This document shows, piece by piece, positions 2,691 through 63,180 of a stretch of DNA of 64,000 nt. Each line of letters begins with the position of its first letter. Within the stretch, counting starts at the first letter, position 1. The stretch is taken from the NCBI GenBank assembly GCA_964484485.1, contig CAZAGD010000033.1, forward strand, positions 1,238 to 65,237. Direction: 5' to 3'. The notes beneath the pieces are model-generated. The model had not been told where the DNA came from. It saw only the letters and a list, made by a program, of their open reading frames with translations, and did not search any database. This DNA comes from an uncultured Syntrophaceae bacterium (lineage in GTDB: Bacteria > Desulfobacterota > SM23-61). Position numbers and translations under genes: made by a program.

Positions 2691-2691
2691 A

Positions 2692-3636: not shown

Positions 3637-3706
3637 TAATTTGGCTTTAAAGGCTTAAATCACCTCAGTCCCGAAGGCTAGAGAGACTGAATGAGGAAAG
3701 AGAGGT

Positions 3707-4557: not shown

Positions 4558-4639
4558 GAATAAAGAATTAAAGCAGTAATTTAGGGGAAAAAGCCATGCA
4601 TTTTTAATCTCTTCTCTTTCCCCAACTAATTATAGAAGG

Positions 4640-6124: not shown

Positions 6125-6157
6125 GATTGGCGGGTGGGCCTGGAAAGGAGGTCCATA

Positions 6158-6280
6158 ATGAAAAAAAGAATAAAGAAAATATTAAGGGAAATCAAAGAGC
6201 AATGCCGTATTGTTATGGAGGATCGGCGGATAAAAGAGAACGATTGGATTGTGGCTCGATTGGGGTTGCATAATATTTAG
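6158..6280 (+). CDS. small basic protein (40 aa), possible partner of RHH ORF
   Basis: AAAGGAGG RBS 7 nt upstream of ATG 6158; MKKRIKKILREIKEQCRIVMEDRRIKENDWIVARLGLHNI. Confidence 0.25.
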   Translation: MKKRIKKILREIKEQCRIVMEDRRIKENDWIVARLGLHNI

Positions 6281-6474
6281 AGCTCTGCGATCTTGGGGAA
6301 AAAGAAGTTGAAAAAGATCCTTGAATAAAAAATTAATGGCGCCACCCGGAACCGGCTAAGGAACCAAGGAGCGCCCGGGCAGGCATGCCAATTAACTGGC
6401 CCACCCACCATTTTATTTATAGCACGGATTGATATGGGAGAGCAATAAAAAATGGAAAAAAATGGAGGTAGTCC

Positions 6475-7539
6475 ATGGGTGTTTATAAAAGGGGGAATGT
6501 TTATTACATAGATTATTATTTTGAGGGAAATAGGATTCGGGAGCGAGTGGGTAAGAATAAAAGACAAGCTGAGTTGGCTCTTGCTTCAAGGAAAGGGGAG
6601 ATTGCTCAAGGGAAATTTAATCTTGAGCGAGTAAAAAAGACTCCTTATTTTGAAGAATTTGCCAAGGAATATTTAGATTGGGCCAAAATCAATCATCGCT
6701 CTTGGGAAAGAATGGATGCAGTGCGGATAAAATGTTTATCGAATTTTTTTTCAGGGAGGCGCTTAAATGAAATCACGCCTTGGCTCATAGAGAAATTTAA
6801 ATCAGAGAGGAAAGATAAAGTAAAGCCGGCGACAATTAACCGAGAGTTGGCCGTGCTCTCGGCCATGCTTTCTCGGGCGATAGAATGGGGGAAGCTTAAT
6901 GAGCATCCTATGAAAGGTGGAAAGGTTAAAAAACTAAGAGAAGATGGCCATAAAGAAAAGATATTAACTGAAGAAGAAGAGAGTCGGCTTTTATCTGTGT
7001 GTAGAGGATGGTTTAAAGAAATGGTGGTTATAGCCTTAGATACCGGAATGCGTCTATCAGAGATAATTGAATTAAAAAAAGAGGATATTGACCTTAATAA
7101 TCATTTAATAAAAGTGAAACATACCAAAAGCGGCAGAGAGAGGAAAATTCCCTTAACTGAAAGAGTATTCTCCATACTGGCAGAGAGGATTAAAGAAGTT
7201 AAAGATTCGGAATTTATTTTTGCCAAAGGAAATGGAAATAAGTTATGGGCTGTAAGGAGTGCCTTTCTTAGGGCTTGTAAGAGAGCTGGTTTTGTTGGTT
7301 TGAGGTTTCATGATCTGCGGCATACCTTTGCTACTCGCTTAGTAACTTCCGGAATTGACCTGGCCACGGTGCAAAAATTACTTGGTCATGAAAATATTCA
7401 AATGACCTTGAGATATTCGCATCCAAGGTCTGAGGATATGAAGCGGGCCATAAAAATTCTTGAGAAGAATGCGGAGAGCAGTCACAAAATGGTCACAAAA
7501 GATGAAATGAAATTATTAAATCTTTGTATAACCCCTTGA
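6475..7539 (+). CDS. int: tyrosine site-specific integrase (phage integrase family)
   Basis: C-terminal catalytic motifs [11 protein letters not shown] and [14 protein letters not shown] (R-H-R-Y); N-terminal arm/SAM-like domain; ends 7 nt from tRNA 3' end. Confidence 0.9.
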
Positions 7540-7545
7540 AATTAC

Positions 7546-7622
7546 TGGCGCGCCCAGCCCGACTCGAACGGGCGACCTACGGATTCGTAGTCCGGCGCTC
7601 TATCCAACTGAGCTATGGGCGC
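7546..7622 (-). tRNA. tRNA-Arg (anticodon ACG)
   Basis: Reverse complement GCGCCCATAGCTCAGTTGGATAGAGCGCCGGACTACGAATCCGTAGGTCGCCCGTTCGAGTCGGGCTGGGCGCGCCA folds as cloverleaf: 7-bp acceptor, D-arm GCTC/GAGC, anticodon loop CTACGAA, T-arm GCCCG/CGGGC, encoded CCA. Confidence 0.9.
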
Positions 7623-47942: not shown

Positions 47943-49043
47943 TTAATTATTAGGCAAATTATTTAAAACCCAAAAAGATTCATCCCGAAGGGCAATTTTT
48001 ACTTTTTTACCTCTCCAAAGTTCTAAATTTCTGAAAGCATAGTTGGGAATGTTGATTTCAAAATTTACTTTTCCTTCTTTAGTTTGGAAATTAATTAGAC
48101 GGTATCCACCTTTATCAATAAAATCTATAATCTCTCCTTCCAAAATATTTTTTTTTAGCGCCTCCTTAACAGGTTTTTCTTCCCTAAGGATCATTACTTC
48201 CTCAGGCCGAATAAAAAGATCGATTTCTTTATCTCCTCCATCATAAAGAGTAGCGGGAATGGAAAGAAGAAGACCATTTAAACTCCAAAAATGTCTCTGT
48301 AGATTTTCATCCCTTTTGAGAAATTCCGCACGGTAAATGTTCCTCAATCCGAGAAATTGGGCTACTTTTTTAGACTTTGGTCTTAAAAATATTTCTTCTT
48401 TGGTTCCTACCTGCTCCACTTTTCCATCGATAAAAACAGTAATTCGATCAGCCAACGAATAGGCTTCTTCAAAATCATGGGTTACGCATAAAATTGTGGG
48501 TCGGAAGGAATCATGAATAGCTTTAAGGAGCTGTTGAATCTCAAATTTAATGCCCGGGTCTAGTCCGGTAAAAGGTTCGTCAAGGAGAAGGAGTTTAGGC
48601 TTTGAGGCCAATCCCCTTAGCAAGGCCACCCGTTTCTTTTCTCCCCCACTAAGACGAGCGGGATAGCGATCAAGAAGCCCTTCAAGTTTCATAATGGAAA
48701 TTAAATTATTAATATAGGATTCATAATCCTTTAAAGGAAGGCTCCGCGCCCTTATTCCATAAAGAATATTCTCTATAACCTTCATATGAGGAAAGAGAGC
48801 CAAGTCTTGAGGCACGTAAGAAATTTCCCTCTTTTCAGGAGAAAGATTTTGAATCTCTTTCCCTTCAATCCAGATCTTCCCCTTTCTGGGCTTATGAAGA
48901 CCAATGATTGATTCGAGGATCAAGGTTTTTCCACTGCCTGTTGGCCCGAGAAGATAGTGGAAATCTCCTTGGTTAATCTCCAGATTAAGATCAAAAAATT
49001 TGAAAGATTTTAAGACGATGGTTAGCCCTTCGACCTTAATCAT
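47943..49043 (-). CDS. modC: molybdate/tungstate ABC transporter ATP-binding protein with C-terminal TOBE domain
   Basis: Walker A GPTGSGKT, LSGGEKKRVALLRGL signature, Walker B LLLDEP; C-terminal TOBE-like domain. Confidence 0.8.
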   Translation of the reverse strand: MIKVEGLTIVLKSFKFFDLNLEINQGDFHYLLGPTGSGKTLILESIIGLHKPRKGKIWIEGKEIQNLSPEKREISYVPQDLALFPHMKVIENILYGIRARSLPLKDYESYINNLISIMKLEGLLDRYPARLSGGEKKRVALLRGLASKPKLLLLDEPFTGLDPGIKFEIQQLLKAIHDSFRPTILCVTHDFEEAYSLADRITVFIDGKVEQVGTKEEIFLRPKSKKVAQFLGLRNIYRAEFLKRDENLQRHFWSLNGLLLSIPATLYDGGDKEIDLFIRPEEVMILREEKPVKEALKKNILEGEIIDFIDKGGYRLINFQTKEGKVNFEINIPNYAFRNLELWRGKKVKIALRDESFWVLNNLPNN

Positions 49044-49812
49044 ATCGAAATTTCTTACCGGTCAAGCGCACGCCATAAAGGGCTAAAATTCCTAAAAGTA
49101 CTAAGACTAAAATCAGAATAACAGACTTTTCAATATTGGCCGAAGCTAAGGCGGTAAATATGGCAATAGGCATAGTTTCAGTTTTTCCTGGCATGGCACC
49201 TGCGAGGGTAACGGTAGCTCCAAATTCACCTACGGCTTTGGCCCAAGAGAGAATAACCGAGGCCAGGAGGCCGCGAAAAGAAAGGGGCAAGGTAATTAGA
49301 TAAAAGGTCTGCCATGGCGAAGAGCCCAGCGATCGAGCGACAGCTTCATACCGGGGAGAGATCTCATCCAGAGAAGCTTTCATTAATCGGGTGGCCAAGC
49401 CGGCGACGGTGGCAAATTGAGCTAAGATAATTCCGGGGACCTCAAAGACGAAAAAAATACCTTTATTTTGGATTAAATTCCCTAAGGGAGTGTTAAAAAA
49501 AACAAGGAAAGAAGCTCCCAGAGCAATAGGGGAAAGGATCAGGGGAATTTCTAAGAAGGCATCAATAAGACTTTTCCCTCTAAAATCAAAACGCGAAAGA
49601 GCATAAGCGGAAGGAAGCGCAATAAGGATAGCCAAGAAGGTAGCCAGCGTGGCGGCCGTTAGACTAAGGCGGATCGAATATAAAGTATAAGGATTTAGCA
49701 ATGCTTCCCAGAAACCTTTTCCGCCAACGAAATAGAAAAGAGAAAAGATTAAAACCAAATAAAAAAGAAAAATGCCAAGTGCTGCCCCAATCATGGCCCC
49801 GCGAAAGCTCAT
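49036..49812 (-). CDS. modB: molybdate/tungstate ABC transporter permease
   Basis: 6 TM; EAA-like loop; overlaps modC and the binding-protein gene. Confidence 0.8.
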   Translation of the reverse strand: MSFRGAMIGAALGIFLFYLVLIFSLFYFVGGKGFWEALLNPYTLYSIRLSLTAATLATFLAILIALPSAYALSRFDFRGKSLIDAFLEIPLILSPIALGASFLVFFNTPLGNLIQNKGIFFVFEVPGIILAQFATVAGLATRLMKASLDEISPRYEAVARSLGSSPWQTFYLITLPLSFRGLLASVILSWAKAVGEFGATVTLAGAMPGKTETMPIAIFTALASANIEKSVILILVLVLLGILALYGVRLTGKKFRYD

Positions 49813-50738
49813 AGCTTCCTTTTACTCCATTCTCTGGGAAGAGCATATTCTCCACCTACTGGTGTATCAGGTTTGGTAAAACGGCGACTTTCTTGCAGGT
49901 CCATTAAATAATTATATTTCCGGAAAATATTTTTTCCTTCAGGTGATAAAAGGAAATTGATAAAATTTTGGGCTCCCGTTTTGTTTTGAGTGAATTTTGA
50001 AATACCGATGGGAATATAGCCAATTCTTGGAATTTCTTCTGGCTTTAAATAGATCGTCTCAATTCTTTTGGGATCCCAATATTGGAAAACCCTCCAACCG
50101 ATCACTGCATCCACCGCTTTAAAGGAGATGGCATTCGCTGTTTTTTCACAACTTTCTGCATAATTAATTAAATTTTTCTTTAAATTCTCTTTCTCAGTGG
50201 GATTTAAATTTTTTTCTATAATTTCTACTGCATAAATTCCCACACAAACATATTCAGGATTAGCAATAGCTACCCGGATTCCTGGTTTAGTTAAATCTTT
50301 AAGAGAATAGATTCTTTTAGGATTCCCCCTTTGCACATTAATAGCAGGAATAAGATAAACCACAATTCTCTCTGTTTCGGAAAAGACCAAGCCTTCTTTT
50401 TTAGCTTGTTCCATAAAATCCGAAGATCCCGGGAAAAAAACATCTCCTTTTTTAGCTAATTTCATCTGTGAAAGGAGGAAGCCTGACCCTCCAAAAGCGC
50501 TGTCGACAGGGATGGCATATTTTCTTTGAAAAAGTTGGACGACTTCTTCGGTAGCAGGCTTGCTGGCTGCTCCTGCCAAAAGAAGTAACCGGGAAGAAGC
50601 AAAGGCTTCTTGGAAAATGCCTATTGATATAAAAAATACCAAAAGAATAAGCCTTGATTGATAATAGATTTTTCTCATCCACATACTTTTTGGAAAAAAA
50701 GAAAAGGGACCGGCTAATTTTGGGAGATAGGGAAGCAT
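49809..50738 (-). CDS. molybdate/tungstate ABC transporter substrate-binding protein (ModA/WtpA-like)
   Basis: Signal/TM then oxyanion-binding protein fold pattern; start possibly at internal MRKIYYQ. Confidence 0.65.
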   Translation of the reverse strand: MLPYLPKLAGPFSFFPKSMWMRKIYYQSRLILLVFFISIGIFQEAFASSRLLLLAGAASKPATEEVVQLFQRKYAIPVDSAFGGSGFLLSQMKLAKKGDVFFPGSSDFMEQAKKEGLVFSETERIVVYLIPAINVQRGNPKRIYSLKDLTKPGIRVAIANPEYVCVGIYAVEIIEKNLNPTEKENLKKNLINYAESCEKTANAISFKAVDAVIGWRVFQYWDPKRIETIYLKPEEIPRIGYIPIGISKFTQNKTGAQNFINFLLSPEGKNIFRKYNYLMDLQESRRFTKPDTPVGGEYALPREWSKRKL

Positions 50739-50857
50739 ATAATTAATTTCTTTGTGGTTGTTTCTGCAATTGGTGGTTAACCGCCAGCTTTCCGTAATAA
50801 CCTCTAAAACATCCCACCAATTTATTTTATTATTATAAGAATTAAAATGGTATTAAT

Positions 50858-51484
50858 TCAACATTTTAGAGCACAGGGTTGGATCACTCCTCTTAAAATA
50901 TGGGCAGCTCCTCTATAAAAATCTTCCTTAGTATTTTCTAAAACCTTGTCCGAAAAGATTGGCACCCATAATCTCATATGCTCTCTAAGGAAATCGTCCC
51001 TTAATTCCAAATTTCGAGAAGCTTCTTGACGCCGCCCTTCTTCAAAATCTTGGATAATTTTTTGAGTCAAATAATATAAAAATTCCAGTTCTATACCAAG
51101 GTAATCATCAGGCATGCTGTAAAGATCTTTCACGGCCATTCCTGCCTCAAGATATCGCTTTCTTACCATAATAGTCTCCTCAGTCATTAATGCTGGTGTC
51201 TCAGACAAATAAAATGAGGCATAAGGAACGGCCGGAGGGTTTTTAGGGCCGATGAATAAACGGGTATATTCGAAAGTAAGGTCTTCTAAGTATTCATTTA
51301 TTCTGTGTAAATTTTTATTTGCTGAAATAGCTAATAATTTTAGTCCATAATCTACCTCATCCTCCACCTCTTCAGGAAGCGTGATCTGGGCAATTTCCAT
51401 GATGAATTCTCTGGTAGGCTCTTTTAAAAATAATAACCTTAAGAGATTGTACAAATAGACTTCTTCTTTTAATTCATCGATCAT
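50858..51484 (-). CDS. TorD/DmsD-family redox-enzyme maturation chaperone
   Basis: 208 aa helical protein with TorD-family pattern, immediately downstream of molybdoenzyme catalytic subunit. Confidence 0.6.
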   Translation of the reverse strand: MIDELKEEVYLYNLLRLLFLKEPTREFIMEIAQITLPEEVEDEVDYGLKLLAISANKNLHRINEYLEDLTFEYTRLFIGPKNPPAVPYASFYLSETPALMTEETIMVRKRYLEAGMAVKDLYSMPDDYLGIELEFLYYLTQKIIQDFEEGRRQEASRNLELRDDFLREHMRLWVPIFSDKVLENTKEDFYRGAAHILRGVIQPCALKC

Positions 51485-51544
51485 TATTACCTCATTTAAG
51501 TCAAAATCGAACTGCCCAAAGGGGAGTTCTCCCCTTTGGGCTAT

Positions 51545-54427
51545 TTATGCCTTTTTAACCCTAACCATCATATCGGCATAGCAGGGCTGTCCCATGATTG
51601 GGCTCAGGGCATCTGGATCACAGAGCATGTTATGGTCCGGCGTATAGTCTTTGCTATTGTAGGCAGGCCCCAGACCTGGACTAAATCTTCCTCCGGCACC
51701 AAAGCCTATTTTTATCACACCGGGTCTTATGCCCCCTGAGACGTATGCTTTGCCCCTCTGTGATTTGCCAATCGGATTTTCTATAATTACAAGATCGCCC
51801 GTCTTAATCCCCAGCTTCTGCGCATCATTATAGTTAATCCAGATTGTTCCCACAGAATAAGTATTTGCTTTGAATTTTAGGCGCAGGGGTTTCATTGGCT
51901 GATCACCTACAGGCATTGCTTCAGGCACGGTAGCTACAAATTCATTGTTCATCGGTAGCCATAAACCCTCGGCCTTTATTTCGCCGAGCCATGGTACCAT
52001 CTGTGTTCCAGTCATAGCGTGGTGGACTCTTCCTGTAATAAGTTGGAAGGGGAAATCTTTCGCATATTTCTTATATTCAGGATTTGTATAAGGGTTCCAC
52101 TTTGTTTCAAACCAATAAAAGGTGGATGGGAATTTGTCAAAACCGATCTGTTTAAGGCCCAATGGAACTTCCCCGCCGGCCTTTTCTATCTTGGCATTAT
52201 GCCCAGCATATCCTCCATAACGCCTATCACCATCTTTCCAATCAAATTTGAACTCAATGAGTCTGGTCGAAGTAGGTGGCCAGACCTTGTGTGGCTCATC
52301 TTTTGTCGACCACTTATACCTATACCAACTCATGGGCCATACGGCGACACCCTTATTTTTTCTGAGCCATGACACCGTAACAGGTTCACCGATTATTTCC
52401 TTTTTCTCATGGTCAATTTTGACATTCCCCTTCTCAAGCGACTCAGGTGTGCCTATGATTTTATATCCTTCGGGATATTGCGGATAGGGGAGGGGCGTGC
52501 CTATATTGGGTTTATCGGGAGTTTTCAGTATAAGGTCATTGGCAAATTCCTCTTCTGTCTTATACTTTTCCCAGAAGTCTCCAGGGTGGATATCCTTATC
52601 GCCCAGTTCATGTAATTTTTTGGCAAGCATATTCATTATATCCGTGGGGTTTTTGCTCTCATGAAGAGGTTTGATAACCGCGTCTCTAACATATCCAAGG
52701 GGCATAGGAGGATAGATGTCTGACCAGCTTATTCTTTCAGCCCCACTCGCCTCGGGAAGAATTACGTCGGCATAAAGGGCACTCTCCAGATTGAGTGTGT
52801 CAATAAATACAAAAAGCTCAAGCTTGTAATTGCCTGCTGCATCTTTTGTGGTTAATGCTGCCTTCCATCTCCAGGTTGCAGAAGCAGTTACTACGGAATT
52901 ACCTGTCCTTAATATATAAGCTTTTATGGGATACTTATGTCCTCTGAATGGGCCATATCTTATCTTTACCTCGTTTCCTTCAAAGAATTCAGGATAATCA
53001 CCCACCACATCATCCCATGCTGATGGATATTTACTTCCGAAGAGGTCTTTATGGAGCTCGCTTACCTTCCCTTCCACCTCTTTTCCATCAATTGTACGTT
53101 TTACTTTTCGGTCAATAAAGCGGCCCTTTTCTACCCATGACATGTGCCTTGCCGTATGTCCGCCACCTTTACCCCACTTCATTATCTCTGTGTCAATGAT
53201 GCCACCAGGGGCGTCAAAGTTTCCGGTAATCACATTAAGGGCCACACCAAGGATGGAAGCACAGTATCCGTTAAAATGGTGACCAGGAGACTGCATGCCC
53301 CAGACTAGGGCTGCTGGTTTAGTTATACCAAAAGTATGGGCAAGGTCTGCAATATCCTCTTTCATAAGGCCTGTTCTATCAGCTGCCCATTCCAGGCTGA
53401 AGTAGCTAAGCCCATTTATGGGGTCCTTTTTGGCCCACCAGGCTTTAAATGCCTCCTCAAACTCATCCCACCCTACGGAATATTTCTTAAAGCTCCAGTC
53501 AATATATTTTCTATTCGGGTCATCCTGTTTGTCATTCTCCAGGATGTATCTGAGTATTGCTCCGAATAAGTCCCCATCAGTCCCAGGACGAGGGGCAAGC
53601 CACTTATCGGCCATTGCTGCCGTATTGCTTAGGGATGGGTCTATGACGATCACTTTACAACCATTCTCTACCATGGCCCCGACCGTGCCTCTGTTTTCAT
53701 AAAATATCCTGGTAGCCACAAATGGATTCCAGCCATTATAGATGATGAGTTTTGTTTTATAAGACATATCCTTTTTCAATGAACCATCCGGCTGTCTCAC
53801 ATAAACTGGCCTCATAATATCAGGCTCCCATCTTTTCCCACCAACCATGAGTTTTGGTCCATGCCTTCTTGGGGTATCACATATGGAGCCATGTTCGACA
53901 CAATTAGGAGTTCCGAAGGCAAAGAAGAGTCTCCAGTACTGGTCTCTGTCTGTTACATCGCCAGTATCCATTATGATAGATTCAGGACCGTATTTATTTT
54001 TAATCGTAATAAGTTTTTTTCCTATATAATCAATTGCCTCATCCCATGATACTCTCTTAAACTTCCCTTCTCCCCTTTCACCAACCCTTATCATTGGGTA
54101 TTTTAGCCGGTAAGGTGAATAAACGAGCTGTCCCAGAGCCGCCGCCTTAGCGCAGGCAATTCCATCATTTAAAGGCACGTGGGAATTACCATAAATCTTG
54201 TGCAACCTTCCGCCTTTTACCCACACCTCCAATCCACATTCACTGGGACACATGACGCAAGCAGTGTATTTTACTTCATATTTACTCATAGCTACTTGCA
54301 TTGCTTCTGCCTCTGCTGGACATATATTTTTTAATGAGATTAGGCCCGTATTATGTAAAGCAGTTATACTTCCCAAAGCTGCCGCATATTTTAAAAATAA
54401 TCTTCTTGATATTTGCATATTCTTCAC
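51545..54427 (-). CDS. TAT-exported molybdopterin (Mo-bisPGD, DMSO-reductase family) oxidoreductase catalytic subunit (Ttr/Psr/Arr/Arx-like)
   Basis: Twin-arginine signal MKNMQISRRLFLKYAAALGSITAL; N-terminal CxxCxxxC...C 4Fe-4S motif; 960 aa. Confidence 0.85.
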   Translation of the reverse strand: MKNMQISRRLFLKYAAALGSITALHNTGLISLKNICPAEAEAMQVAMSKYEVKYTACVMCPSECGLEVWVKGGRLHKIYGNSHVPLNDGIACAKAAALGQLVYSPYRLKYPMIRVGERGEGKFKRVSWDEAIDYIGKKLITIKNKYGPESIIMDTGDVTDRDQYWRLFFAFGTPNCVEHGSICDTPRRHGPKLMVGGKRWEPDIMRPVYVRQPDGSLKKDMSYKTKLIIYNGWNPFVATRIFYENRGTVGAMVENGCKVIVIDPSLSNTAAMADKWLAPRPGTDGDLFGAILRYILENDKQDDPNRKYIDWSFKKYSVGWDEFEEAFKAWWAKKDPINGLSYFSLEWAADRTGLMKEDIADLAHTFGITKPAALVWGMQSPGHHFNGYCASILGVALNVITGNFDAPGGIIDTEIMKWGKGGGHTARHMSWVEKGRFIDRKVKRTIDGKEVEGKVSELHKDLFGSKYPSAWDDVVGDYPEFFEGNEVKIRYGPFRGHKYPIKAYILRTGNSVVTASATWRWKAALTTKDAAGNYKLELFVFIDTLNLESALYADVILPEASGAERISWSDIYPPMPLGYVRDAVIKPLHESKNPTDIMNMLAKKLHELGDKDIHPGDFWEKYKTEEEFANDLILKTPDKPNIGTPLPYPQYPEGYKIIGTPESLEKGNVKIDHEKKEIIGEPVTVSWLRKNKGVAVWPMSWYRYKWSTKDEPHKVWPPTSTRLIEFKFDWKDGDRRYGGYAGHNAKIEKAGGEVPLGLKQIGFDKFPSTFYWFETKWNPYTNPEYKKYAKDFPFQLITGRVHHAMTGTQMVPWLGEIKAEGLWLPMNNEFVATVPEAMPVGDQPMKPLRLKFKANTYSVGTIWINYNDAQKLGIKTGDLVIIENPIGKSQRGKAYVSGGIRPGVIKIGFGAGGRFSPGLGPAYNSKDYTPDHNMLCDPDALSPIMGQPCYADMMVRVKKA

Positions 54428-54431
54428 CCTC

Positions 54432-55097
54432 CTACTGGTTGATTAAGCCATCGGCTATTTTAAATACTTCTTTATCTGGGACAATGAAATATACCCTCGG
54501 CTTCAGTCCATAGTCTGGATTCCAAACCTCTGTTTTCACGGATGCTTTGAGTTTAGAAATCGCACTGTTCGGGTCATTTAAATCTCCGAAGAACCTTGCC
54601 CTCCCTGCACAGTTACGGATACATGTGGGTTCTTCAATACCTGAGGCAAGCCTATGACTGCAAAAGTCGCACTTATCAACGGTTCTTAAATCTTTCGCTC
54701 TCTTCCCCCTAACCTCTTCCACATCCTTGGCGTATTTAGACGGGTCGTTCTTTACAAGAAGATGAGGATGGAGAAATCTCGCTCCATAGGGACATGCCTT
54801 GACACACCGTCCACAGCCAATGCATAAATCCCGGTTTACCATTACCACACCATCTTCCCTTTTATAAGTAGCTCCCTTCACAGGACATGGGAGGACACAT
54901 GCCGGCTCATCACACTGGTTACAGATTTTGGGGAAGAAATACCTTTTTGCCTTTGGATACTCGCCTGCGTCGGCAATATCCACTTTTGACCTAAACTTGC
55001 CCACGGGAACGCCATTCTCCATTTTGCAACTCACCTGGCAAGATGTACAGCCTACGCACTTGCGCAGGTCCACAATTAATGCGTAATTTTTGCCCAT
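54432..55097 (-). CDS. 4Fe-4S ferredoxin-type electron-transfer subunit of the molybdoenzyme (DmsB/PsrB/ArrB-like)
   Basis: Four Cys clusters (CVGCTSCQVSC; CNQCDEPAC; CIGCGRCVKAC; CDFC); start placed at ATG 55097 with GGGGG RBS. Confidence 0.8.
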   Translation of the reverse strand: MGKNYALIVDLRKCVGCTSCQVSCKMENGVPVGKFRSKVDIADAGEYPKAKRYFFPKICNQCDEPACVLPCPVKGATYKREDGVVMVNRDLCIGCGRCVKACPYGARFLHPHLLVKNDPSKYAKDVEEVRGKRAKDLRTVDKCDFCSHRLASGIEEPTCIRNCAGRARFFGDLNDPNSAISKLKASVKTEVWNPDYGLKPRVYFIVPDKEVFKIADGLINQ

Positions 55098-55132
55098 AAT
55101 TACCCCCTTTCCCAAATTTTTTAAAAATTATC

Positions 55133-55148
55133 AGCAATTCTTATGCCA
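55133..55148 (-). promoter_or_regulatory. sigma-54 (-24/-12) promoter TGGCATAAGAATTGCT upstream of the molybdoenzyme operon
   Basis: Minus-strand reading of 55133-55148 gives TGGCAT-N5-TTGCT matching TGGCAC-N5-TTGCW at 15/16 positions with correct spacing; ~25 nt upstream of start codon; sigma-54 activator encoded immediately upstream. Confidence 0.5.
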
Positions 55149-55236
55149 GACTTAAGTATATGGATGGTTTCAGATATTTGTTATGGAGTAGTGCTAAATG
55201 ATTGAGCAGGTGTGCAGAAACTGAACAGATTTTTAT

Positions 55237-56616
55237 TTATTCCTCTTCTAATTTTTTCCGCAAGGTGTTCCGCGATATGCCCAAGAGTTTCGCTGCTTGA
55301 ACTTGATTTCCTTCGGTAGCCTCAAGGGCCTTTCTGATCATCTTCTTCTCGACCTTTTTCAGCACTTCATCAAAAATATATGCGCCTTTACTTTGCAAAG
55401 CCAATTGCGCGAGTTCTTCTGTGATTTTGTCAAAATCATGATTATGACGCTTTTGCTCAGAAAAACTATTAAGGAGCTCAACGGAAAGATAATCACCCTT
55501 GGAAAAAACCACTGCTCTTTGGATTGTATTTTCTAATTCTCTTACATTCCCAGGCCAGGAATATGATTTAAATTTTGCAAGTGTTTCCGAAGTCATGCCT
55601 TTTATCGTCTTACCAAATTTTTGATTATACTTATGAATAAAATAATTAATAAGTTCAGGAATATCCTCTTTTCTTTCCCGCAAAGGTGGCACATTTATAT
55701 TGACTACATTTATCCGATAATAAAGGTCTTCTCGGAAACAGCCCTTTTCTACTAACTCCTCAAGTTTCTTGTTTGTGGCAGTAATAATCCGTACATCTGT
55801 TTTGATTGACTCTGGGCTGCCCAGCCTTTGGATCTCACCATCTTGGAGCACGCGTAATAGCTTTGCCTGTAAAGGAAGAGCCATATCTCCAATTTCATCA
55901 AGGAATAGAGTACCTTTATGGCACTGTTCAAATTTCCCAAGGCGTTTAAAATCCGCACCGGTAAATGCCCCCCGCTCATAACCAAAAAGTTCCGCTTCCA
56001 GGAGCTGCTCTGGTATGGCCGAGCAATTAATCGCCATAAAAGGCTTTTCTGCTCGGCTACTGTAATGGTAAATGGCCCGGGCTATTAATTCTTTGCCTGT
56101 TCCGCTTTCTCCCTTTATAAGAATTGGCGCATCAGTTGGAGCTATCTGACCTATCTGTTTATAAATTTCAAGCATCTGCGGGCTCTTGCCTATAATTTTT
56201 TCCCCTCCTCCAAAATCTTGAAATTCGTTAAAGGTGACGACCTCTTGCATCATTTTTTTTACATTAAGGGCATTCTTAACCCGCATAAGTAATTCATCAT
56301 TATTAAACGGCTTAGGAATATAATCATACGCTCCTAATTTCATGGCCCATATCGCTTTTTCCGTTGTGCTAAAGGCCGTCATCATAATTACTTGAATTTT
56401 AGCATCTACGGCTTTTATTCTTCGTAATACCTCAAGGCCATCCATTTCAGGCATTCTGACATCCATGATTACCAAGTCTGGTTTCATATCATTTAACAAC
56501 ATTAAGGCATCTGTTCCGCTGGCCGCGGTATAAACAATATACCCTTCAGATTGCAGGAATCTTTTAAGCGAATAACAGATTGCTCTTTGATCATCAACCA
56601 CGAGTATTTTATTCAT
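55237..56616 (-). CDS. sigma-54-dependent response regulator (NtrC family: REC + AAA+ + Fis-HTH)
   Basis: Receiver Asp region LVIMDVRMP; Walker A GESGTGKE; GAFTGA motif (ERGAFTGAD); C-terminal HTH QAAKLLGISRNTLRKK. Confidence 0.9.
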   Translation of the reverse strand: MNKILVVDDQRAICYSLKRFLQSEGYIVYTAASGTDALMLLNDMKPDLVIMDVRMPEMDGLEVLRRIKAVDAKIQVIMMTAFSTTEKAIWAMKLGAYDYIPKPFNNDELLMRVKNALNVKKMMQEVVTFNEFQDFGGGEKIIGKSPQMLEIYKQIGQIAPTDAPILIKGESGTGKELIARAIYHYSSRAEKPFMAINCSAIPEQLLEAELFGYERGAFTGADFKRLGKFEQCHKGTLFLDEIGDMALPLQAKLLRVLQDGEIQRLGSPESIKTDVRIITATNKKLEELVEKGCFREDLYYRINVVNINVPPLRERKEDIPELINYFIHKYNQKFGKTIKGMTSETLAKFKSYSWPGNVRELENTIQRAVVFSKGDYLSVELLNSFSEQKRHNHDFDKITEELAQLALQSKGAYIFDEVLKKVEKKMIRKALEATEGNQVQAAKLLGISRNTLRKKLEEE

Positions 56617-57998
56617 ATAATTAAAGGTATTCGTACCGTAAAGGTCGTCCCCGGCCCATTATTTTCGAAACTAATATCCCCATTATGGAAGTTAACAATA
56701 TTATGGTAAGCTATCCAAAGACCGAGTCCTGTGCCTTCAACCTTGGTGGTGAAAAATGGGTCAAATATTTTATTTTTTATCTCTTCGCTAATACCACCCC
56801 CGGAATCTGAAATGGAGATAAAGACGTGGCCGTCATCCGGTCTGCTTGTTACTCTAAGTCTACCTCCATTTGGCATAGCCTCAATAGCATTAAGAACAAT
56901 ATTAAGCAAAGCCTGCTCAAGCAATGTTTTATCACCTTTTATGGGGGGAAGTTTGGATAGTTTTAACTCCGTCTCAATTTTTCGGTCTTTTATCTGAAAT
57001 CGCATTAGCTTTAAGACTTGTTTTATTAGGGAATTAAGATATACATCAGAGACGTTAAATTCATCACTTCGGGCAAACTTGAGAAATCTATTCAAAAGGT
57101 TCTCCATATGTTCGACTTCCACAAGGATTACTTCTATATCTTCTTGCGTTAGCTGGGGATTATTCTTAAACGCCTGAAATAAAACTTTAATAGAGGTAAG
57201 GGGGTTTCTTATTTCATGAGCAAAGCCCGCAGAGAGTCTTCCGAGAGCTGTTAGTTTCTCCGTCCTGAGCATATTTTTATAAGAATCTTCCATTCGCTCC
57301 TTATATAACTTGAGTTCTTGAGATAGATTATTAAAGGCATTTGCTAATTCCCCAATTTCATCCTTAGAATTTATCTCGACCATCCTCCCAAAATGCCCTT
57401 TAGACAGGCTGTGGGAAAAATCTACGAGTCTGTAGAGGGGCTTAGTAATAACTTTGCCCAAACTGCTTGATAAAGCCAAACTGATTATTAAGCCAAATAT
57501 CGTTAGCGTTAGAACAATATTACGGACTCTGGTTAAAGAATGAGTAATTCGCTCTTGCTTCATGCCTATATGCAGCTCTGCCTCCAAACCGTCGAACATC
57601 TTTATGCCAAAGTCTCTTATAAAACCGATCTCCGTCTCTAATAACTTTGCGGAAATATTTTTTGGAGTTGTAGGATTCCATTGCAATAGATCTGCGGGAT
57701 AGCCATCTTTAAAAGTGTGCACAAGAATATATCCTTCTGGGTCTGTAACATATATGTATTCAATATCTCTTTCATTTTTAAGAATATCCTCAAGCGCTTC
57801 CTCTATTTTAAAACGATCATGGAGCAACACATAATCGGCTATTATATTCGACAAATTCCTAACCAAGGATTCACCCTCTTTCAATAATTCTACCTCCATG
57901 GTTTTAGCAACCAAATTTCTGACCGCCATTCCTATGAGCAGTCCCAAAGCTACGACAATAACCGAATTTAATATGACTATCTTGACCCAGAGTTTCAT
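56613..57998 (-). CDS. sensor histidine kinase (TM + HAMP-like + HisKA + HATPase)
   Basis: H-box FAHEIRNPLTSI, N/G boxes (NAIEAM; DSGGGI; GTGLGL); start placed at MKLWVKIV (57998) adjacent to the upstream gene stop. Confidence 0.8.
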   Translation of the reverse strand: MKLWVKIVILNSVIVVALGLLIGMAVRNLVAKTMEVELLKEGESLVRNLSNIIADYVLLHDRFKIEEALEDILKNERDIEYIYVTDPEGYILVHTFKDGYPADLLQWNPTTPKNISAKLLETEIGFIRDFGIKMFDGLEAELHIGMKQERITHSLTRVRNIVLTLTIFGLIISLALSSSLGKVITKPLYRLVDFSHSLSKGHFGRMVEINSKDEIGELANAFNNLSQELKLYKERMEDSYKNMLRTEKLTALGRLSAGFAHEIRNPLTSIKVLFQAFKNNPQLTQEDIEVILVEVEHMENLLNRFLKFARSDEFNVSDVYLNSLIKQVLKLMRFQIKDRKIETELKLSKLPPIKGDKTLLEQALLNIVLNAIEAMPNGGRLRVTSRPDDGHVFISISDSGGGISEEIKNKIFDPFFTTKVEGTGLGLWIAYHNIVNFHNGDISFENNGPGTTFTVRIPLII

Positions 57999-58930
57999 TT
58001 TACGGAGAGGTATTTGTGCACGAGTTCTTTTACCTCGGCTAAGCAACCATCTTTGTACAAAGTAAACCCATTGGGCATCTCTGTCTTATCCCAATCTATA
58101 ACCATTCCGGAATGCTTGTTTTTGGGGTCGAAGGCCATTAAAGCTTCTTTCACTGCCCTTAAAATGATGGGGTCAACATTTTTATTGGCACAAATAAGGC
58201 TGCTCGGATAGGGTTTTGAGATAGCGATAATCTTGAGCTTTCCTTGAGTTGCTAATCTTTGAGCAAGTGTATCTTGCATCCCGCCTGCTTCGTATTCACC
58301 ATTCAAGATGGCTCTGGCAGTATTGGCGTGAGAGCCTGTAAAAATATAACTTTTTAAATCCGCCAATCTCACCCCCGCATCTTCAAGCATCTTTCGGGGG
58401 ATAATATGGCCTTGGGTGGAGAATCTGTCGCCGAAGGCGAATGATCGCCCTTTCAGGTCCTTGATCGATTTAAAAGGGCTATCTATTTGAGTTACAATAG
58501 CAGCATGATATTCTGCCTTCCCTTCGGCATTAAGTCCCATTACTAGACATTTGGTCTCATGTTTCTCCTTGGCCAGAACACAATTAACAGGCCCAAGAGC
58601 AGCAAAATTAGTAACTCCCCGTCCTAAATTTTCCACGGTATCTTCGTATTTTTCGGTAAATCTTAGAGAAAATTTGTATCCCGAATAATTCTCCAAATAA
58701 CGAAGAAAAGGCAAATATATTCGGACTTCCTCTCTGGGACTGAGTCTAAGATCAAAACCAAATTTCAAAATATCCTCGGCAGGTTGCCGGAAAGAATTTT
58801 TAGAAATTATAGGAGTGCGTTGATAAAGGCTTACTTTTTTAGCAACTTCTTCGTCTCCGCAATTTATAATCAGAAGGGGGAAAAGCAAGTAGGCTAATTT
58901 CTTAATAGCCTTAAAATTGTTAACCTTCAT
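57995..58930 (-). CDS. periplasmic PhnD-like (phosphonate-ABC-type) solute-binding protein, probable ligand sensor partnered with the kinase
   Basis: Signal peptide; PhnD/SsuA-like fold pattern; translationally coupled to HK gene. Confidence 0.65.
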   Translation of the reverse strand: MKVNNFKAIKKLAYLLFPLLIINCGDEEVAKKVSLYQRTPIISKNSFRQPAEDILKFGFDLRLSPREEVRIYLPFLRYLENYSGYKFSLRFTEKYEDTVENLGRGVTNFAALGPVNCVLAKEKHETKCLVMGLNAEGKAEYHAAIVTQIDSPFKSIKDLKGRSFAFGDRFSTQGHIIPRKMLEDAGVRLADLKSYIFTGSHANTARAILNGEYEAGGMQDTLAQRLATQGKLKIIAISKPYPSSLICANKNVDPIILRAVKEALMAFDPKNKHSGMVIDWDKTEMPNGFTLYKDGCLAEVKELVHKYLSVK

Positions 58931-59612: not shown

Positions 59613-59827
59613 CCCATGAAGATGGCGCTTATTTTATGCTCCCATTAATAAAACCTTATATAAAAATGGCTACATGTCTCAGAAGTTATTATTTGCGAAT
59701 TTGCATCTTAAAAGCTAAAGCTCCCGCCCTTCAGTGAGGTATGATTAGAGGTCTTCTTTTTTTCTTGACAAGATAAGCCGCTTATATTATTTTGTATACT
59801 AATTATTTTAAAGCCGGAAAAATACGC

Positions 59828-60241
59828 ATGCCTTCCTATGAGGAGTGTTTAGTTTTTCTTTTAGCCAAGGCTTATCAAAAAGCCCATGCAGCTTTTAAGC
59901 AAAAACTCGCTCCCTACGGAATTACTCCCGTCCAACATCTCATTTTAGCCGTCCTGGCCGAAGAAGATTCTCTTGCGCCCGCAGAAATTTCGGACAGGAT
60001 TCTCATGGATGGGGCAACTCTCTCGGGAGTCCTGGACCGAATGGCCGAAGCTGGTCTTATTAGAAAAGAAGAAAATCCGCAGGATCGGCGGTCGTTAAAA
60101 ATATCTTTGACAGCCAAAGCCAAAAAAATGTGTGCTGACCTGGCCACCCAAAGAAAAGCCATAAATGAGGAATTGACGGCTAAATTTACTCTGGAAGAGA
60201 AAATTTTACTCAAAAGATTGCTCAAAGATTTAAAAGAGTAA
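59828..60241 (+). CDS. MarR-family transcriptional regulator
   Basis: wHTH pattern (APAEISDRILMDGATLSGVLDRMAEAGLIRKEENPQDRRS); ATG 59828 preferred to TTG 59792. Confidence 0.8.
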   Translation: MPSYEECLVFLLAKAYQKAHAAFKQKLAPYGITPVQHLILAVLAEEDSLAPAEISDRILMDGATLSGVLDRMAEAGLIRKEENPQDRRSLKISLTAKAKKMCADLATQRKAINEELTAKFTLEEKILLKRLLKDLKE

Positions 60242-60243
60242 TT

Positions 60244-60257
60244 ATTTGTATACAAAT
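60244..60257. promoter_or_regulatory. perfect 14-bp palindrome ATTTGTATACAAAT between marR and the nitroreductase gene; related half-site TTTGTATACTAA at 59789..59801 upstream of marR; candidate MarR operators
   Basis: Read directly; palindrome is self-complementary; second copy lies ~30 nt upstream of marR ATG. Confidence 0.4.
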
Positions 60258-60305
60258 TAATAAACGGGGAATATAAAAAGGCAGGAGCTGGAGAGAAAGG
60301 GGTCC

Positions 60306-61187
60306 ATGATTTACATAAAGGAGGAAAAATGCACTAACTGTGGCTTATGTGTTTCCGTATGCGTGCGCCGAATTCTCCGCCTGGGCGATAAAGGAGCAGA
60401 AATAACTGATTCCAATATGTGTTTTTATTGTGGTCATTGCAAAGCGGTCTGCCCGGCAGATGCTTTTTATTTTAGCGAAGGTAATGACCAATTCTTACCG
60501 GTTATTTCCAAAAGGGAGATTCCTCAGCCGGCTATTTTTTTCCGTTTCTTAAGGCGACGCCGCAGTCTACGGGTTTACGAAGATCGTTTAGTAGAAAAGA
60601 CTAAATTAAAAATGTTAATCGAGGCCGGCCGCTATGCACCTACAGGGTCAAACCGGCAAGCCTGTGAATTTGTGGTAGTTAGTGGGCGGCCAATGGTAGA
60701 CCAGATTTGCGAGTTAGCCATTGCTAACCTCTATGAACAAGGGCAGGAAATTAGAAAGGCAATTAGGGAGTATCAAAATTTACAGCAACCTCTACCTGCG
60801 GAATTCTCAGTAAAACAAAATTTCCCCCCCATTTGGGAACGGATCGCGAAAAAGTGGCAAGAAGGGGAAGACCAGCTCCTCCATCATGCTCCTGCTTTGA
60901 TCATTATCCATATGGATAAAAAGGCTGCTACTACTCCGGAGATAGACGCGGCTATTGCGGCTACTCATATGATCCTCTTGGCCGAAACCTTAGGTTTGGG
61001 AACATGCTTTATTGCCTTTCTCATCTGGGCCATAGAAAACTCTGCAGATTTAAAAAGGCTGCTCCAGATCCCTGATTACCACCAAGCGCTGATTGCTTTT
61101 ACCGTAGGCTATCCTGCTGTTCAATATCTAAGAGTAGTAGCCCGAAACCAGGCGCGCGTTAAATGGCTGGGGGAATACATTGACTAA
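60306..61187 (+). CDS. ferredoxin-nitroreductase fusion protein (N-terminal 2x[4Fe-4S], C-terminal nitroreductase fold)
   Basis: CTNCGLCVSVC and CGHCKAVCP motifs then nitroreductase-family core (RRSLRVYED...APTGSNRQ). Confidence 0.7.
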   Translation: MIYIKEEKCTNCGLCVSVCVRRILRLGDKGAEITDSNMCFYCGHCKAVCPADAFYFSEGNDQFLPVISKREIPQPAIFFRFLRRRRSLRVYEDRLVEKTKLKMLIEAGRYAPTGSNRQACEFVVVSGRPMVDQICELAIANLYEQGQEIRKAIREYQNLQQPLPAEFSVKQNFPPIWERIAKKWQEGEDQLLHHAPALIIIHMDKKAATTPEIDAAIAATHMILLAETLGLGTCFIAFLIWAIENSADLKRLLQIPDYHQALIAFTVGYPAVQYLRVVARNQARVKWLGEYID

Positions 61188-61207
61188 TACGGAAAGGAGG
61201 AAGCAAA

Positions 61208-62281
61208 ATGCCCCACGAGGTTTATAAAAGGTTGTGTCAGGCTATGGCGCAAAGGGGAGGGCCTTACCCAGGACTTGACATTCCTGAATTTTACGATTTA
61301 GCCCAAGAACTTTTCACTTTAGCCGAAGCCGAAGTATCGGCCGCGATGCCCCGTAAACCTGCTCCGGCCTCGATAATTGCCCAGCAGTTGGGCAAAAAGG
61401 AAGAGGAGGTACACCTTATTCTCGAGGCCATGGCGAATAAGGGTCTTTGCAGCACTTTTGTAGCCGACGAACGCCGCTATTATGTGCCCTCTCCCTTCGT
61501 ACCCGGAATCTTTGAATTTCAATTTATGCGGGGCACTAAAACGGAGCGAGATAGAAAAATTGCTAAATTAATTCATGCCTATAAAAATGCTGTGGACCGC
61601 CTTTCCCCTGTTCAACCAATTTCCTTTCCTTTTAACCGAGTTATCCCTGTAGGAGTAACCCTGCGTCCCGATTCGCGCGTCCACACTTTTAATCAAGTTT
61701 ACTCTTATATTGACCGTTACGATCCCATCGCGGTCTCTACTTGCTTTTGCCGCCACGAAGCAAAGCTTTTGGATGAGAAAGATGATTGTGGAAAGCCTGA
61801 TGATGTATGCCTGCAATTTGGCTTGGGAGCAGCTTATGTGATTGAAAGAGGTTTGGGCAAGAAGGTGAGTAAAGAAGAAGCTAAGGAGGTTTTGCAAAAA
61901 GCTGAAAAAGCTGGCTTGGTCCATGCCAGCTTGAATACGCAAGAAATTGATTTTATCTGTAATTGTTGTCCCTGTCATTGCCTCATTCTAAAGCGGGCTT
62001 TAAGCCAGCCCAAACCAGGAAAAGTGCTTTATTCTGGTTACCAGCCGGTTTATCAACCGGAGTTATGTACGGGTTGTGGCACTTGTGCGGAGAGGTGTCC
62101 GGCAAAAGCAGTAAACCTAAAAGATAATATTCCTCAACTCGATACTGACCGCTGTTTTGGCTGCGGAATATGCGCTTCCAGCTGCCCAATTGAGGCTATC
62201 ACCATGGAAGTTAAACCAGAAACTCCCCCGCCGCCCTTGAATCGGAAAGAGTTACGACAGGCTTTAGAAATGAACCGTTAA
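61208..62281 (+). CDS. Fe-S protein with C-terminal 2x[4Fe-4S] ferredoxin domain and Cys-rich central region
   Basis: CTGCGTCAERCP and CFGCGICASSCP motifs; additional CxxC/CNCCPCHC cluster; N-terminal region unassigned. Confidence 0.5.
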   Translation: MPHEVYKRLCQAMAQRGGPYPGLDIPEFYDLAQELFTLAEAEVSAAMPRKPAPASIIAQQLGKKEEEVHLILEAMANKGLCSTFVADERRYYVPSPFVPGIFEFQFMRGTKTERDRKIAKLIHAYKNAVDRLSPVQPISFPFNRVIPVGVTLRPDSRVHTFNQVYSYIDRYDPIAVSTCFCRHEAKLLDEKDDCGKPDDVCLQFGLGAAYVIERGLGKKVSKEEAKEVLQKAEKAGLVHASLNTQEIDFICNCCPCHCLILKRALSQPKPGKVLYSGYQPVYQPELCTGCGTCAERCPAKAVNLKDNIPQLDTDRCFGCGICASSCPIEAITMEVKPETPPPPLNRKELRQALEMNR

Positions 62282-62307
62282 AATTGATCCTTTATAGGGA
62301 GGCCATA

Positions 62308-63180
62308 ATGAAAAATAGTGCAGATCTAAAAAATCTAAGCTCTTGGGTGGAATCTTTAATTAAAGATTTTATAAACCATTCTCCAGAAAATACATTAAAA
62401 AATAAAGCCAATGAAAAAGCTTGGGATGACCCCCTGGTGGGCTTTGCCCCGGGGAGTGATCAATTATTTCAAGATTTCAAAACTTATGTGGGCGAATTTC
62501 ATTGGACTCCTCTGGAAATATTTGTTAAGACTTTTCCCACATGGACAGGCCAGGTTGAAGACCTCACAGTAATTTCTTGGATTTTGCCGCAGACCGAGAG
62601 AACCAAAGCTGATAACCGGCAAGAAACAGCGTTCCCTTCCGAGAGATGGGCCCGCGCGCGGATTTTTGGTGAAGAAGTGAACGTCAAACTTCGCCAACAT
62701 GTGGTGGCTAAATTACAGGAAAGAGGTATCTTAGCCGTAGCCCCTATGCTCTCCCCTTTTTGGGAGCAAAAAATATCTCCTCGTTTTGGATATGCTTCTA
62801 CTTGGTCGGAGAGACATGCCGCTTACGCGGCTGGGTTAGGAACTTTTGGCCTTAGCGATGGCCTAATTACGCCTAAAGGAAAGGCTATGCGCTGTGGCTC
62901 TGTAGTGGCAAATATAAAGCTTCCTCCGACTTCCCGCCCTTACTCTGATCATCAAGCTTATTGTTTATTCTTTTCTAAGGGAATCTGCGGCAAATGTATA
63001 AAAAGGTGCCCGGCTCAAGCTATTAGTGAAAAAGGGCATGACAAAGTTAAATGCCGCAATTATATGCATCCCCTTATAGAAGAATATGTGGAAAAAAACT
63101 TTGGCTTTAAAGGCTACGGATGCGGCCTATGCCAAACAGGGGTTCCTTGCGAATCTGGCATCCCCCTGACTGATGCTTGA
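62308..63180 (+). CDS. QueG/reductive-dehalogenase-like 4Fe-4S protein (short form)
   Basis: AAGLGTFGLSDGLITPKGKAMRCGSV resembles the QueG GLGWIGKN..LLITP..G motif; CGKCIKRCPAQAI cluster; GGGAGG RBS before ATG 62308. Confidence 0.45.
   Translation: MKNSADLKNLSSWVESLIKDFINHSPENTLKNKANEKAWDDPLVGFAPGSDQLFQDFKTYVGEFHWTPLEIFVKTFPTWTGQVEDLTVISWILPQTERTKADNRQETAFPSERWARARIFGEEVNVKLRQHVVAKLQERGILAVAPMLSPFWEQKISPRFGYASTWSERHAAYAAGLGTFGLSDGLITPKGKAMRCGSVVANIKLPPTSRPYSDHQAYCLFFSKGICGKCIKRCPAQAISEKGHDKVKCRNYMHPLIEEYVEKNFGFKGYGCGLCQTGVPCESGIPLTDA

Follow-up and report, generated by a model that had tools for sequence, protein, structure and literature searches.

The 64-kb stretch of DNA analysed here (the window), from contig CAZAGD010000033.1 of an uncultured Syntrophaceae bacterium, carries six adjacent genes, designated X, S, R, B, A and D, which are likely to be the orthologue of anrXSRBAD, the system with which Geobacter sp. 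SVR and Desulfuribacillus stibiiarsenatis respire antimonate [Sb(V)] by means of a periplasmic reductase. The cluster joins the recently described Anr family and is not a new kind of system. The window was compared with 54 loci from relatives (L labels), and related proteins were grouped into clusters (P labels). Between the catalytic subunit A and WP_173201954.1 of Geobacter sp. SVR, a member of protein cluster P0052, 957 aa align at 71% identity, and the SVR locus (AP024469.1:235908-258754) has the order X-S-R-B-A-D, matching the window in both order and orientation. Identities between the two loci amounted to 52% for X, 43% for S, 53% for R, 71% for B, 71% for A and 45% for D, all six proteins being mutual counterparts. 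A first-pass annotation of this region had suggested that the substrate of the enzyme may be new; the tight clustering of A with SVR AnrA and the collinear six-gene orthology speak against that claim.

We take WP_173201954.1 to be AnrA, the protein encoded by the anrXSRBAD operon of SVR. Mass spectrometry of a band with Sb(V)-reductase activity reportedly yielded AnrA, and Sb(III), but not As(III), is reported to induce SVR anrA. The accession, the operon name and the XSRBAD order reported for SVR all fit the present data. WP_173201954.1 is encoded on the SVR chromosome of 4,717,360 bp (size from PMC8032467), and the study of Kambara et al. 2024 (Appl Environ Microbiol 90:e0172923) is cited with its title in PMC13284237. 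A is furthermore 62% identical to OEH84960.1 of D. stibiiarsenatis, an antimonate respirer, and we infer this protein to be the published BHU72_07145; AnrA of D. stibiiarsenatis (Abin & Hollibaugh 2019) has been named as the Sb(V) reductase (PMC12183865, PMC11521347). By orthology, Sb(V) would be the substrate of A in the present host as well.

The reductase and its probable substrate

Nine intact open reading frames (ORFs) follow one another in the same direction on the minus strand (47943-58930), as seen from ORF calls with Pfam and NCBIfam assignment, and the domain E-values of the cluster genes, from 1e-28 to 1e-151, rule out chance matches. The architecture proposed in the first-pass annotation, X-S-R together with an AB reductase of the molybdenum bis-pyranopterin guanine dinucleotide (Mo-bisPGD) type exported by twin-arginine translocation (TAT) and a TorD protein, is thereby supported. 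The anrA-like gene (51545-54427, minus strand) encodes the catalytic Mo/W-bisPGD subunit of 960 aa with the domains Molybdop_Fe4S4, Molybdopterin and Molydop_binding. It carries a twin-arginine motif (SRRLFLK, residues 7-13), the cysteines for the FS0 cluster (57/60/64/92), and Cys183, which aligns with the Mo-ligand Cys of PsrA and ArrA. The anrB-like Fe-S subunit (54432-55115, minus strand; likely start at ATG 55097, giving 221 aa, after a GGGGG ribosome-binding site) has 16 Cys and four ferredoxin-type [4Fe-4S] motifs. Its best curated models are TtrB, DsrO and ArrB, all of them under cut-off (ArrB NF041715, 160 vs 450 bits). Sequence prediction gave no signal peptide for B, which is presumably exported together with A, the pair being predicted to reach the periplasm by TAT export. 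The anrD-like gene (50858-51484, minus strand) encodes a TorD/DmsD-family protein (Pfam Nitrate_red_del/TorD, E=1e-28), the predicted cofactor-insertion and TAT-proofreading chaperone for A.

A remained under the cut-off of every curated NCBIfam model, namely PhsA (NF012032, 225 bits against a cut-off of 694), DmsA (215 against 778), ArrA (NF041714, 142.9 against 1600) and TtrA (NF011567, 83.5 against 1750). The nearest proteins by sequence are those of the Psr/Phs group (PsrA 2vpw, E=3e-40), followed by ArrA, while TtrA is the most distant among these. The first-pass annotation had placed A closer to TtrA than to ArrA, which holds for length only, since by sequence TtrA scores 83.5 bits and ArrA 143. 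PsrA and ArrA align with A chiefly over residues 1-410; compared with PsrA/PhsA, A is about 200 residues longer, with residues 411-526 and 593-860 unaligned. In a scan of 1.84 billion 50%-identity representatives the family appeared as a single full-length 50% cluster at 1624 bits, below which came a sister group of B-A fusions (46% identity, 788 bits) and then a drop to 374 bits. Within the family, no two subclades fall below about 60% identity. Judged by these scores, the A family is a tight, isolated clade of the DMSO reductases. In the sister subfamily (P0143, 1096 aa; L017 7362-10634) the Fe-S subunit forms the N-terminal part of a fused B-A polypeptide that has no TAT signal and should accordingly be cytoplasmic; in L017 the gene had no XSR genes next to it.

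To see in which company the family occurs, the neighbour genes of 22 family loci were clustered and the clusters annotated with Pfam. Genes for ACR3-type pumps were present in 6 of the 22 loci, ArsR in five, ArsC of the low-molecular-weight-phosphatase type in two, and ArsA with ArsD in two. In three loci from Thermodesulfovibrionales/Nitrospirota the ACR3 efflux gene sits exactly between R and the sigma-54 promoter of B (L002 5141-6043, L012 6171-7190 and L014 1931-2914). In the metagenomic locus L045 (1-11566; JGI metagenome 3300045902), aioBA (Rieske and large subunit) lies divergently beside X-S-R, followed by a rhodanese gene, a GerE-type regulator gene and B-A-D, so that X-S-R in this locus could serve either the arsenite oxidase or the B-A-D enzyme. 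The ars, ACR3 and aio neighbours tie the family to arsenic and antimony and not to sulfur. A YnfA/UPF0060 membrane protein also recurs near the cluster, in five loci.

These neighbours bear on the idea that the enzyme is a sulfur-compound reductase of the Phs/Psr/Ttr type, acting on thiosulfate, polysulfide or tetrathionate. The best solved and curated matches of A are indeed PsrA and PhsA, JGI labels some members as 'thiosulfate reductase/polysulfide reductase chain A', and a family member in Desulfitobacterium hafniense, Dhaf_1206-1209, has been called a putative phsABC operon plus chaperone (Kim et al. 2012). All these matches, however, fall far under the curated cut-offs and are confined chiefly to the N-terminal 410 residues of a protein whose family is an isolated clade, the nearest experimentally studied members are Anr proteins, and the conserved neighbours are arsenic and antimony resistance genes with none for sulfur metabolism. 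The phsABC label in D. hafniense rests on similarity alone and is probably wrong. We therefore regard a sulfur-compound substrate as improbable.

The D. hafniense DCB-2 locus (L049 7441-14683) reads arsR, methyltransferase, X, kinase, regulator, B, NrfD, A, D, arsC, arsR, ACR3; its assignment to Dhaf_1206-1209, with the locus extending to Dhaf_1212, was made by gene order. The Fe(III)-induced Dhaf_1509 operon was also considered as the family member of this organism and was rejected on the same gene order. Fifteen genes away lies a canonical arrABC (Dhaf_1226-1228). A genuine Arr thus occurs side by side with the family, an argument against arsenate as the main substrate of the latter, and D. 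stibiiarsenatis likewise has a canonical ArrA.

This coexistence has to be weighed against a second possibility, that the family is the same and that in this host it acts on another oxyanion related to arsenic and antimony, or on a similar one (arsenate, thioarsenate, thioantimonate, tellurate or selenite), with Sb(V) as one activity of a broader enzyme. The family is widespread in habitats that are not known to be antimony-rich, the ACR3, ArsR, ArsC, ArsAD and AioBA neighbours serve arsenic as well as antimony, and rhodanese genes adjoin several loci. Shewanella ArrAB also reduces Sb(V) (Wang et al. 2020, as cited in a later paper), which indicates cross-reactivity in this enzyme group. On the other side, the canonical ArrA in D. 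hafniense points to a non-redundant substrate. The low score of A on the ArrA model argues against arsenate, as does the alignment with ArrA (6cz7), where LLRGRYSH is matched by MDTGDVTDR/TGDVTDRD in A and the RGRY segment is absent; in ArrA a conserved (R/K)GRY substrate-binding segment reportedly precedes the Cys ligand (Glasser et al. 2018). X, for its part, lacks the Cys of the arsenic-sensing AioX/ArxX/ArrX subfamily (see below), and the reported response of SVR anrA to Sb(III) but not to As(III) also speaks against this possibility. Taken together, we find a broader or different substrate in this host unlikely, though it is the strongest competitor of the Sb(V) assignment. Also unlikely is the more general proposal that the Anr family is not primarily an antimonate reductase in nature but acts on thiolated As/Sb species or another hydroxylated oxyanion, Sb(V) reduction being secondary in the two isolates studied. 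Such a primary substrate would fit the occurrence of the family in low-antimony lineages, the pocket signature peculiar to X (STQGH/GGxQD, no Cys) and the recurring rhodanese genes.

Several observations weigh against the assignment of the cluster as an Sb(V) reductase system. The evidence for Anr in the reference organisms reportedly consists of transcript induction, proteomics and activity staining, with no knockouts or purified enzyme, and among enzymes of this family an identity of 71% is no proof of equal substrate range. Metagenome-assembled genomes (MAGs) that carry the cluster are common in groundwater and sediment, where antimony is scarce, and the natural substrate could accordingly be a broader or different one. 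The 64-kb window contains no homologue of ACR3, ArsR, ArsC, ArsA, ArsD or cation diffusion facilitator (CDF) proteins, and thus no gene for Sb(III)/As(III) efflux; nor did a search for homologues and for CxxCH-rich ORFs find a gene for NrfD, NapC/NrfH or a multihaem cytochrome c in it, as the first-pass annotation had correctly stated with regard to a membrane quinol-oxidising subunit. Finally, the published 'Desul-anrA' quantitative PCR primers (Desul-anrAF/Desul-anrAR, supplementary file 1 of PMC13284237) matched none of the 54 loci at up to four mismatches, D. stibiiarsenatis and SVR included. This mismatch most likely reflects on the primers and not on the Anr assignment. A custom hidden Markov model in the same paper found as many as seven 'anrA' genes per MAG, and environmental anrA counts may not concern the Anr family described here.

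Sensor, regulator and regulatory DNA

The anrX-like gene (57995-58930, minus strand) encodes a periplasmic binding protein of the PhnD/PtxB superfamily (Pfam Phosphonate-bd, E=3.5e-54) with a lipoprotein-like signal (Cys24), presumably the ligand sensor of the relay. X passes the broad phosphate/phosphite/phosphonate subfamily model TIGR01098 (121.6 vs 112 bits), its best solved relative is the phosphite binder PtxB (E=5.5e-22), and homologues are named 'phosphonate transport system substrate-binding protein' in databases, all of which would suit an ordinary binding protein of a phosphonate or phosphite ATP-binding cassette (ABC) transporter that lies beside the reductase by coincidence. After PtxB, X is next closest to ArrX (3.3e-11), with AioX a marginal match (about 2e-4). 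An ordinary transporter protein, a possibility already raised by the first-pass annotation, would be expected to have phnC/phnE-type partners. No such genes are adjacent, and the sole nearby ABC transporter is ModBC-like with a ModA-like binding protein of its own. X scored only 102.9 bits on the PhnD equivalog model TIGR03431 (cut-off 261), its pocket motifs are unlike those of PtxB and PhnD, its gene is translationally coupled to the kinase gene, and the X-kinase-regulator trio adjoins B-A-D across phyla, in two different gene orders. We consider the transporter explanation very improbable, the least likely of those weighed here.

The ligand pocket of AioX/ArxX/ArrX comprises Tyr88, Cys106, Tyr131, Ser161, Ser163, His192 and Asp210 (Badilla et al. 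2018). Of the residues other than Tyr88 (AioX numbering), X keeps the equivalents of Tyr131, Ser161, His192 and Asp210, whereas Gly stands in place of Cys106 and Gln in place of Ser163, a pattern shared by nearly all of the 18 X orthologues compared from related loci. Since the hallmark Cys is absent, X falls outside the AioX/ArxX/ArrX subfamily. The X family has motifs of its own, STQG[HY] and GG[IML]QD, which differ from those of PtxB, ArrX and AioX and are found in all lineages, including SVR and D. stibiiarsenatis. The analogy drawn by the first-pass annotation with AioXSR, ArxXSR and ArrX is apt for the regulatory logic but not for the subfamily of X: X presumably works like AioX and ArrX and yet represents a separate branch, tuned to another ligand, as far as its pocket residues indicate.

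The anrS-like sensor histidine kinase (56613-58046, minus strand; Pfam HAMP, HisKA and HATPase_c) has two transmembrane segments with a periplasmic domain of some 135 aa between them, and the HAMP, HisKA (His277) and HATPase domains come after these. Its likely start is ATG 57998 (461 aa), which overlaps the stop codon of X, and 461 aa is also the length called in close relatives. The N-terminal sensor half is also kept in Firmicute kinases bearing a different transmitter. The TtrS model matches the transmitter region of S only (91 vs 750 bits), and the PhnD-like domain is here a separate protein, unlike in the TtrS fusion. The start of R overlaps the S stop by 4 nt. The anrR-like gene (55237-56616, minus strand) encodes an NtrC-type sigma-54 regulator (Response_reg; Sigma54_activat, E=1.9e-72; HTH_8; NtrC TIGR01818, E=4.5e-151) with receiver Asp52, GAFTGA at residue 216 and a Fis-type helix-turn-helix. 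An NtrC-type sigma-54 two-component system is marked by a receiver Asp, an AAA+ domain bearing GAFTGA, an HTH_8 domain and a target gene with a -24/-12 promoter, and all of these are present.

The promoter in question, TGGCATAAGAATTGCT (55133-55148, minus strand), lies before B in the 120-nt R-B spacer. It departs from the sigma-54 consensus at one position, and the 64 kb contain three sites that match as well as this or better. A sigma-54 promoter in front of the AB pair had been predicted in the first-pass annotation, and the element is conserved 36-59 nt upstream of the B start in nine related loci. Alignment of these nine loci showed that about 95 nt upstream of B are conserved, with the invariant columns cTGTTCA-N5-CTGCACAyCTG...TTGAACAC; the upstream block itself (cTGTTCA-N5-CTGCACAyCTG-N..-TTgAaCAC) is found at 55191-55228 on the minus strand, beginning 9 nt past the R stop. 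It is present whichever gene precedes it, be it R, an ACR3 pump or a toxin-antitoxin pair, and its core CTGCACACCTG recurs in the R-B spacer of SVR. The block is probably the binding site of the activator R.

A second conserved feature was seen in the spacer between A and D, where a G+C-rich hairpin of 12 bp (51514-51541, minus strand; dG -27.6 kcal/mol, z=-3.9) is predicted. Hairpins of 12-18 perfect bp, unrelated in sequence, occur in the A-D spacer of most related loci (L001-L007, L012, L016, L019, L042 and L054), and in L007, L042 and Geobacter sp. SVR the hairpin is followed by a U-run, as in an intrinsic terminator. It is probably a partial terminator or an mRNA stabiliser that sets the BA:D ratio, and may attenuate expression of the chaperone or stabilise the B-A message.

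Distribution, electron input and neighbouring genes

X-S-R-B-A-D synteny was found in about ten MAG loci from Nitrospirota and Deltaproteobacteria. Hosts of the family include groundwater Nitrospirota/Thermodesulfovibrionales, Desulfobulbaceae, Beta- and Gammaproteobacteria, Opitutaceae and Methylomirabilis MAGs, as well as Firmicutes. The scan of genome contigs used exact peptide patterns and yielded close relatives only.

The loci differ in the genes that could deliver electrons. Like the window, the SVR operon has no gene for NrfD, NapC/NrfH or a multihaem cytochrome. In members from Firmicutes an NrfD anchor is inserted between B and A, two Nitrospirota loci have a 490-aa multihaem cytochrome between R and B, with B there carrying its own TAT signal, and in D. 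stibiiarsenatis a small cytochrome c is encoded beside the reductase genes, together with a further Fe-S protein. Some relatives have NapC-like or small multihaem cytochromes encoded alongside. From this pattern we infer that the reductase core combines with interchangeable electron donors, the donor being encoded elsewhere in the present host.

With these elements, the system could operate as follows. AnrD would help to load Mo/W-bisPGD into AnrA in the cytoplasm, and AnrA would then be exported by TAT, carrying the signal-less AnrB with it, a pathway suggested by the domains and motifs of the two proteins and by analogy with ArrAB, PsrAB and DmsAB. In the periplasm, electrons from a quinol-oxidising partner encoded elsewhere would pass through the four [4Fe-4S] clusters of AnrB into AnrA, reaching FS0 and the metal centre with its Cys183 ligand, where, if orthology is a guide to substrate, Sb(V) would be reduced to Sb(III). 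AnrX may bind an antimony species and signal through the periplasmic domain of AnrS; AnrS would phosphorylate AnrR, and AnrR would bind the conserved block and activate the sigma-54 promoter before anrB. Molybdate or tungstate could be provided by the ModABC-like importer encoded next door.

This importer consists of a ModA-like binding protein (49809-50738; TIGR01256, 69.2 bits, above the cut-off of 62.5), a ModB-like permease (49036-49812) and a WtpC/ModC-like ATPase (47943-49043), all on the minus strand and the latter two under cut-off. The first-pass annotation had included a Mo/W uptake system in the XSR-controlled module. The importer is found at 47943-50738, adjoining the cluster and just outside the range given for that module, but the proposed control by XSR is not supported: the importer has a sigma-70-like promoter of its own (50861-50832, minus strand, at the end of D) and is kept in variants from which B-A-D has been deleted. 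It is absent from most related loci; the D. stibiiarsenatis cluster is flanked by modABC with a ModE-like gene, while SVR has tat, moeA and moaA genes instead. The importer probably supplies the cofactor metal, but it is an accessory that does not define the system.

The deletion variants come from metagenomic contigs 89-94% identical to the window, which carry either the full X-S-R-B-A-D-modABC arrangement (L052) or a form deleted by an insertion sequence (IS; L051 and L053, 91-94% identical to the window). In the latter two, a 1.28-kb IS3-type element (HTH_Tnp_1 and rve; L051 12852-14130, L053 11563-12841) replaces window positions 50679-56079. The stretch lost comprises the 3' two-thirds of R together with B, A and D, whereas the genes for X, S and ModABC are intact. 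This presence/absence polymorphism among close relatives indicates that the reductase is a dispensable accessory trait in the lineage.

On the plus strand at 59792-63180, a gene for a MarR-family regulator is divergent from X, and next to it come those encoding a ferredoxin-nitroreductase fusion and two more Fe-S proteins. The block is syntenic in L051-L053 with or without the reductase, and for this reason it is probably unrelated to Anr. Its divergent Fe-S genes (60306-63180) were considered as counterparts of the extra Fe-S protein of the D. stibiiarsenatis cluster and rejected, ferredoxin motifs alone being in common. At the other end of the window, positions 1-7622 form an integrated mobile element that encodes a DUF3987 protein and a DNA methylase as well as a tyrosine integrase (6475-7539), the gene of which lies directly against tRNA-Arg(ACG) at 7546-7622; the G+C content of the first 8 kb is 36-39%, against about 45% in the rest of the window.

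Antimony is a priority pollutant, and an antimonate-respiring enzyme has been identified only recently, in two isolates. The operon described here and the family in Nitrospirota, Desulfobacterota, Proteobacteria, Firmicutes and other phyla widen the known distribution of the trait, while leaving existing concepts unchanged. Curated model libraries do not yet recognise the family, whose members go under the names 'molybdopterin-dependent oxidoreductase', 'thiosulfate/polysulfide reductase', 'selenocysteine-containing dehydrogenase' and 'nitrate reductase', and in D. hafniense under 'phsABC'; owing to this mislabelling, surveys of antimony cycling are likely to miss or miscount it. The upstream block with its sigma-54 promoter, the A-D hairpin, the X signature, the electron-input modules and the IS-deletion variants offer leads on regulation and ecology.

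Comparison with known systems

Among the characterised reductases, PsrABC and PhsABC share the cofactor set and the Cys ligand with A and provide its nearest solved structure and nearest curated model, and Firmicute members of the family retain an NrfD/PsrC-type anchor as Psr and Phs do. The Psr/Phs gene order is A-B-C, in contrast to B-A in the window, which is moreover regulated by XSR and belongs to a family with an arsenic and antimony context; with the PhsA model under cut-off and no NrfD-type gene in the window, the enzyme does not belong to Psr/Phs. ArrAB of Shewanella sp. ANA-3 and Chrysiogenes arsenatis resembles the window system in being a periplasmic, TAT-exported AB enzyme with Cys-ligated Mo and a TorD-like ArrD, and Shewanella arr has no anchor either, but in the arr operon A precedes B.

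As regards regulation, AioXSR and ArxXSR follow the same logic, with a periplasmic binding protein, a kinase, an AtoC/NtrC-type activator and an RpoN promoter before a Mo-enzyme operon, but they regulate oxidases of other clades. In ArrXSR, ArrX is likewise a PhnD-like periplasmic protein feeding a two-component system, whereas ArrR, unlike R, is not a sigma-54 regulator.

Within the Anr family, the B-A-D core of the window is also found in D. stibiiarsenatis MLFW-2. The X orthologue there shows the pocket motifs of the window X, the kinase is homologous to S in its N-terminal sensor half, and modABC lies nearby. The gene order of D. stibiiarsenatis is different (cytochrome-B-A-D-FeS-X-kinase-regulator), its kinase is of the GAF/HisKA_3 type and its regulator of the GerE/LuxR type, without sigma-54, and the small cytochrome c and a 362-aa Fe-S protein are encoded in addition. 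SVR anrXSRBAD differs from the window in host lineage, in G+C content (52% at the SVR locus vs about 41-44% in the window), in the -12 element (TTGAT vs TTGCT), in the A ORF, where the N termini differ by 12 residues, that of the window being the longer, and in the downstream genes (tatA-tatC-tatA-moeA-moaA vs the ModABC-like importer). It agrees with the window in having a TAT signal on A only, an NtrC-type sigma-54 regulator, an operon free of a membrane anchor, the CTGCACACCTG block with a -24/-12 element in the R-B spacer, and a hairpin between A and D.

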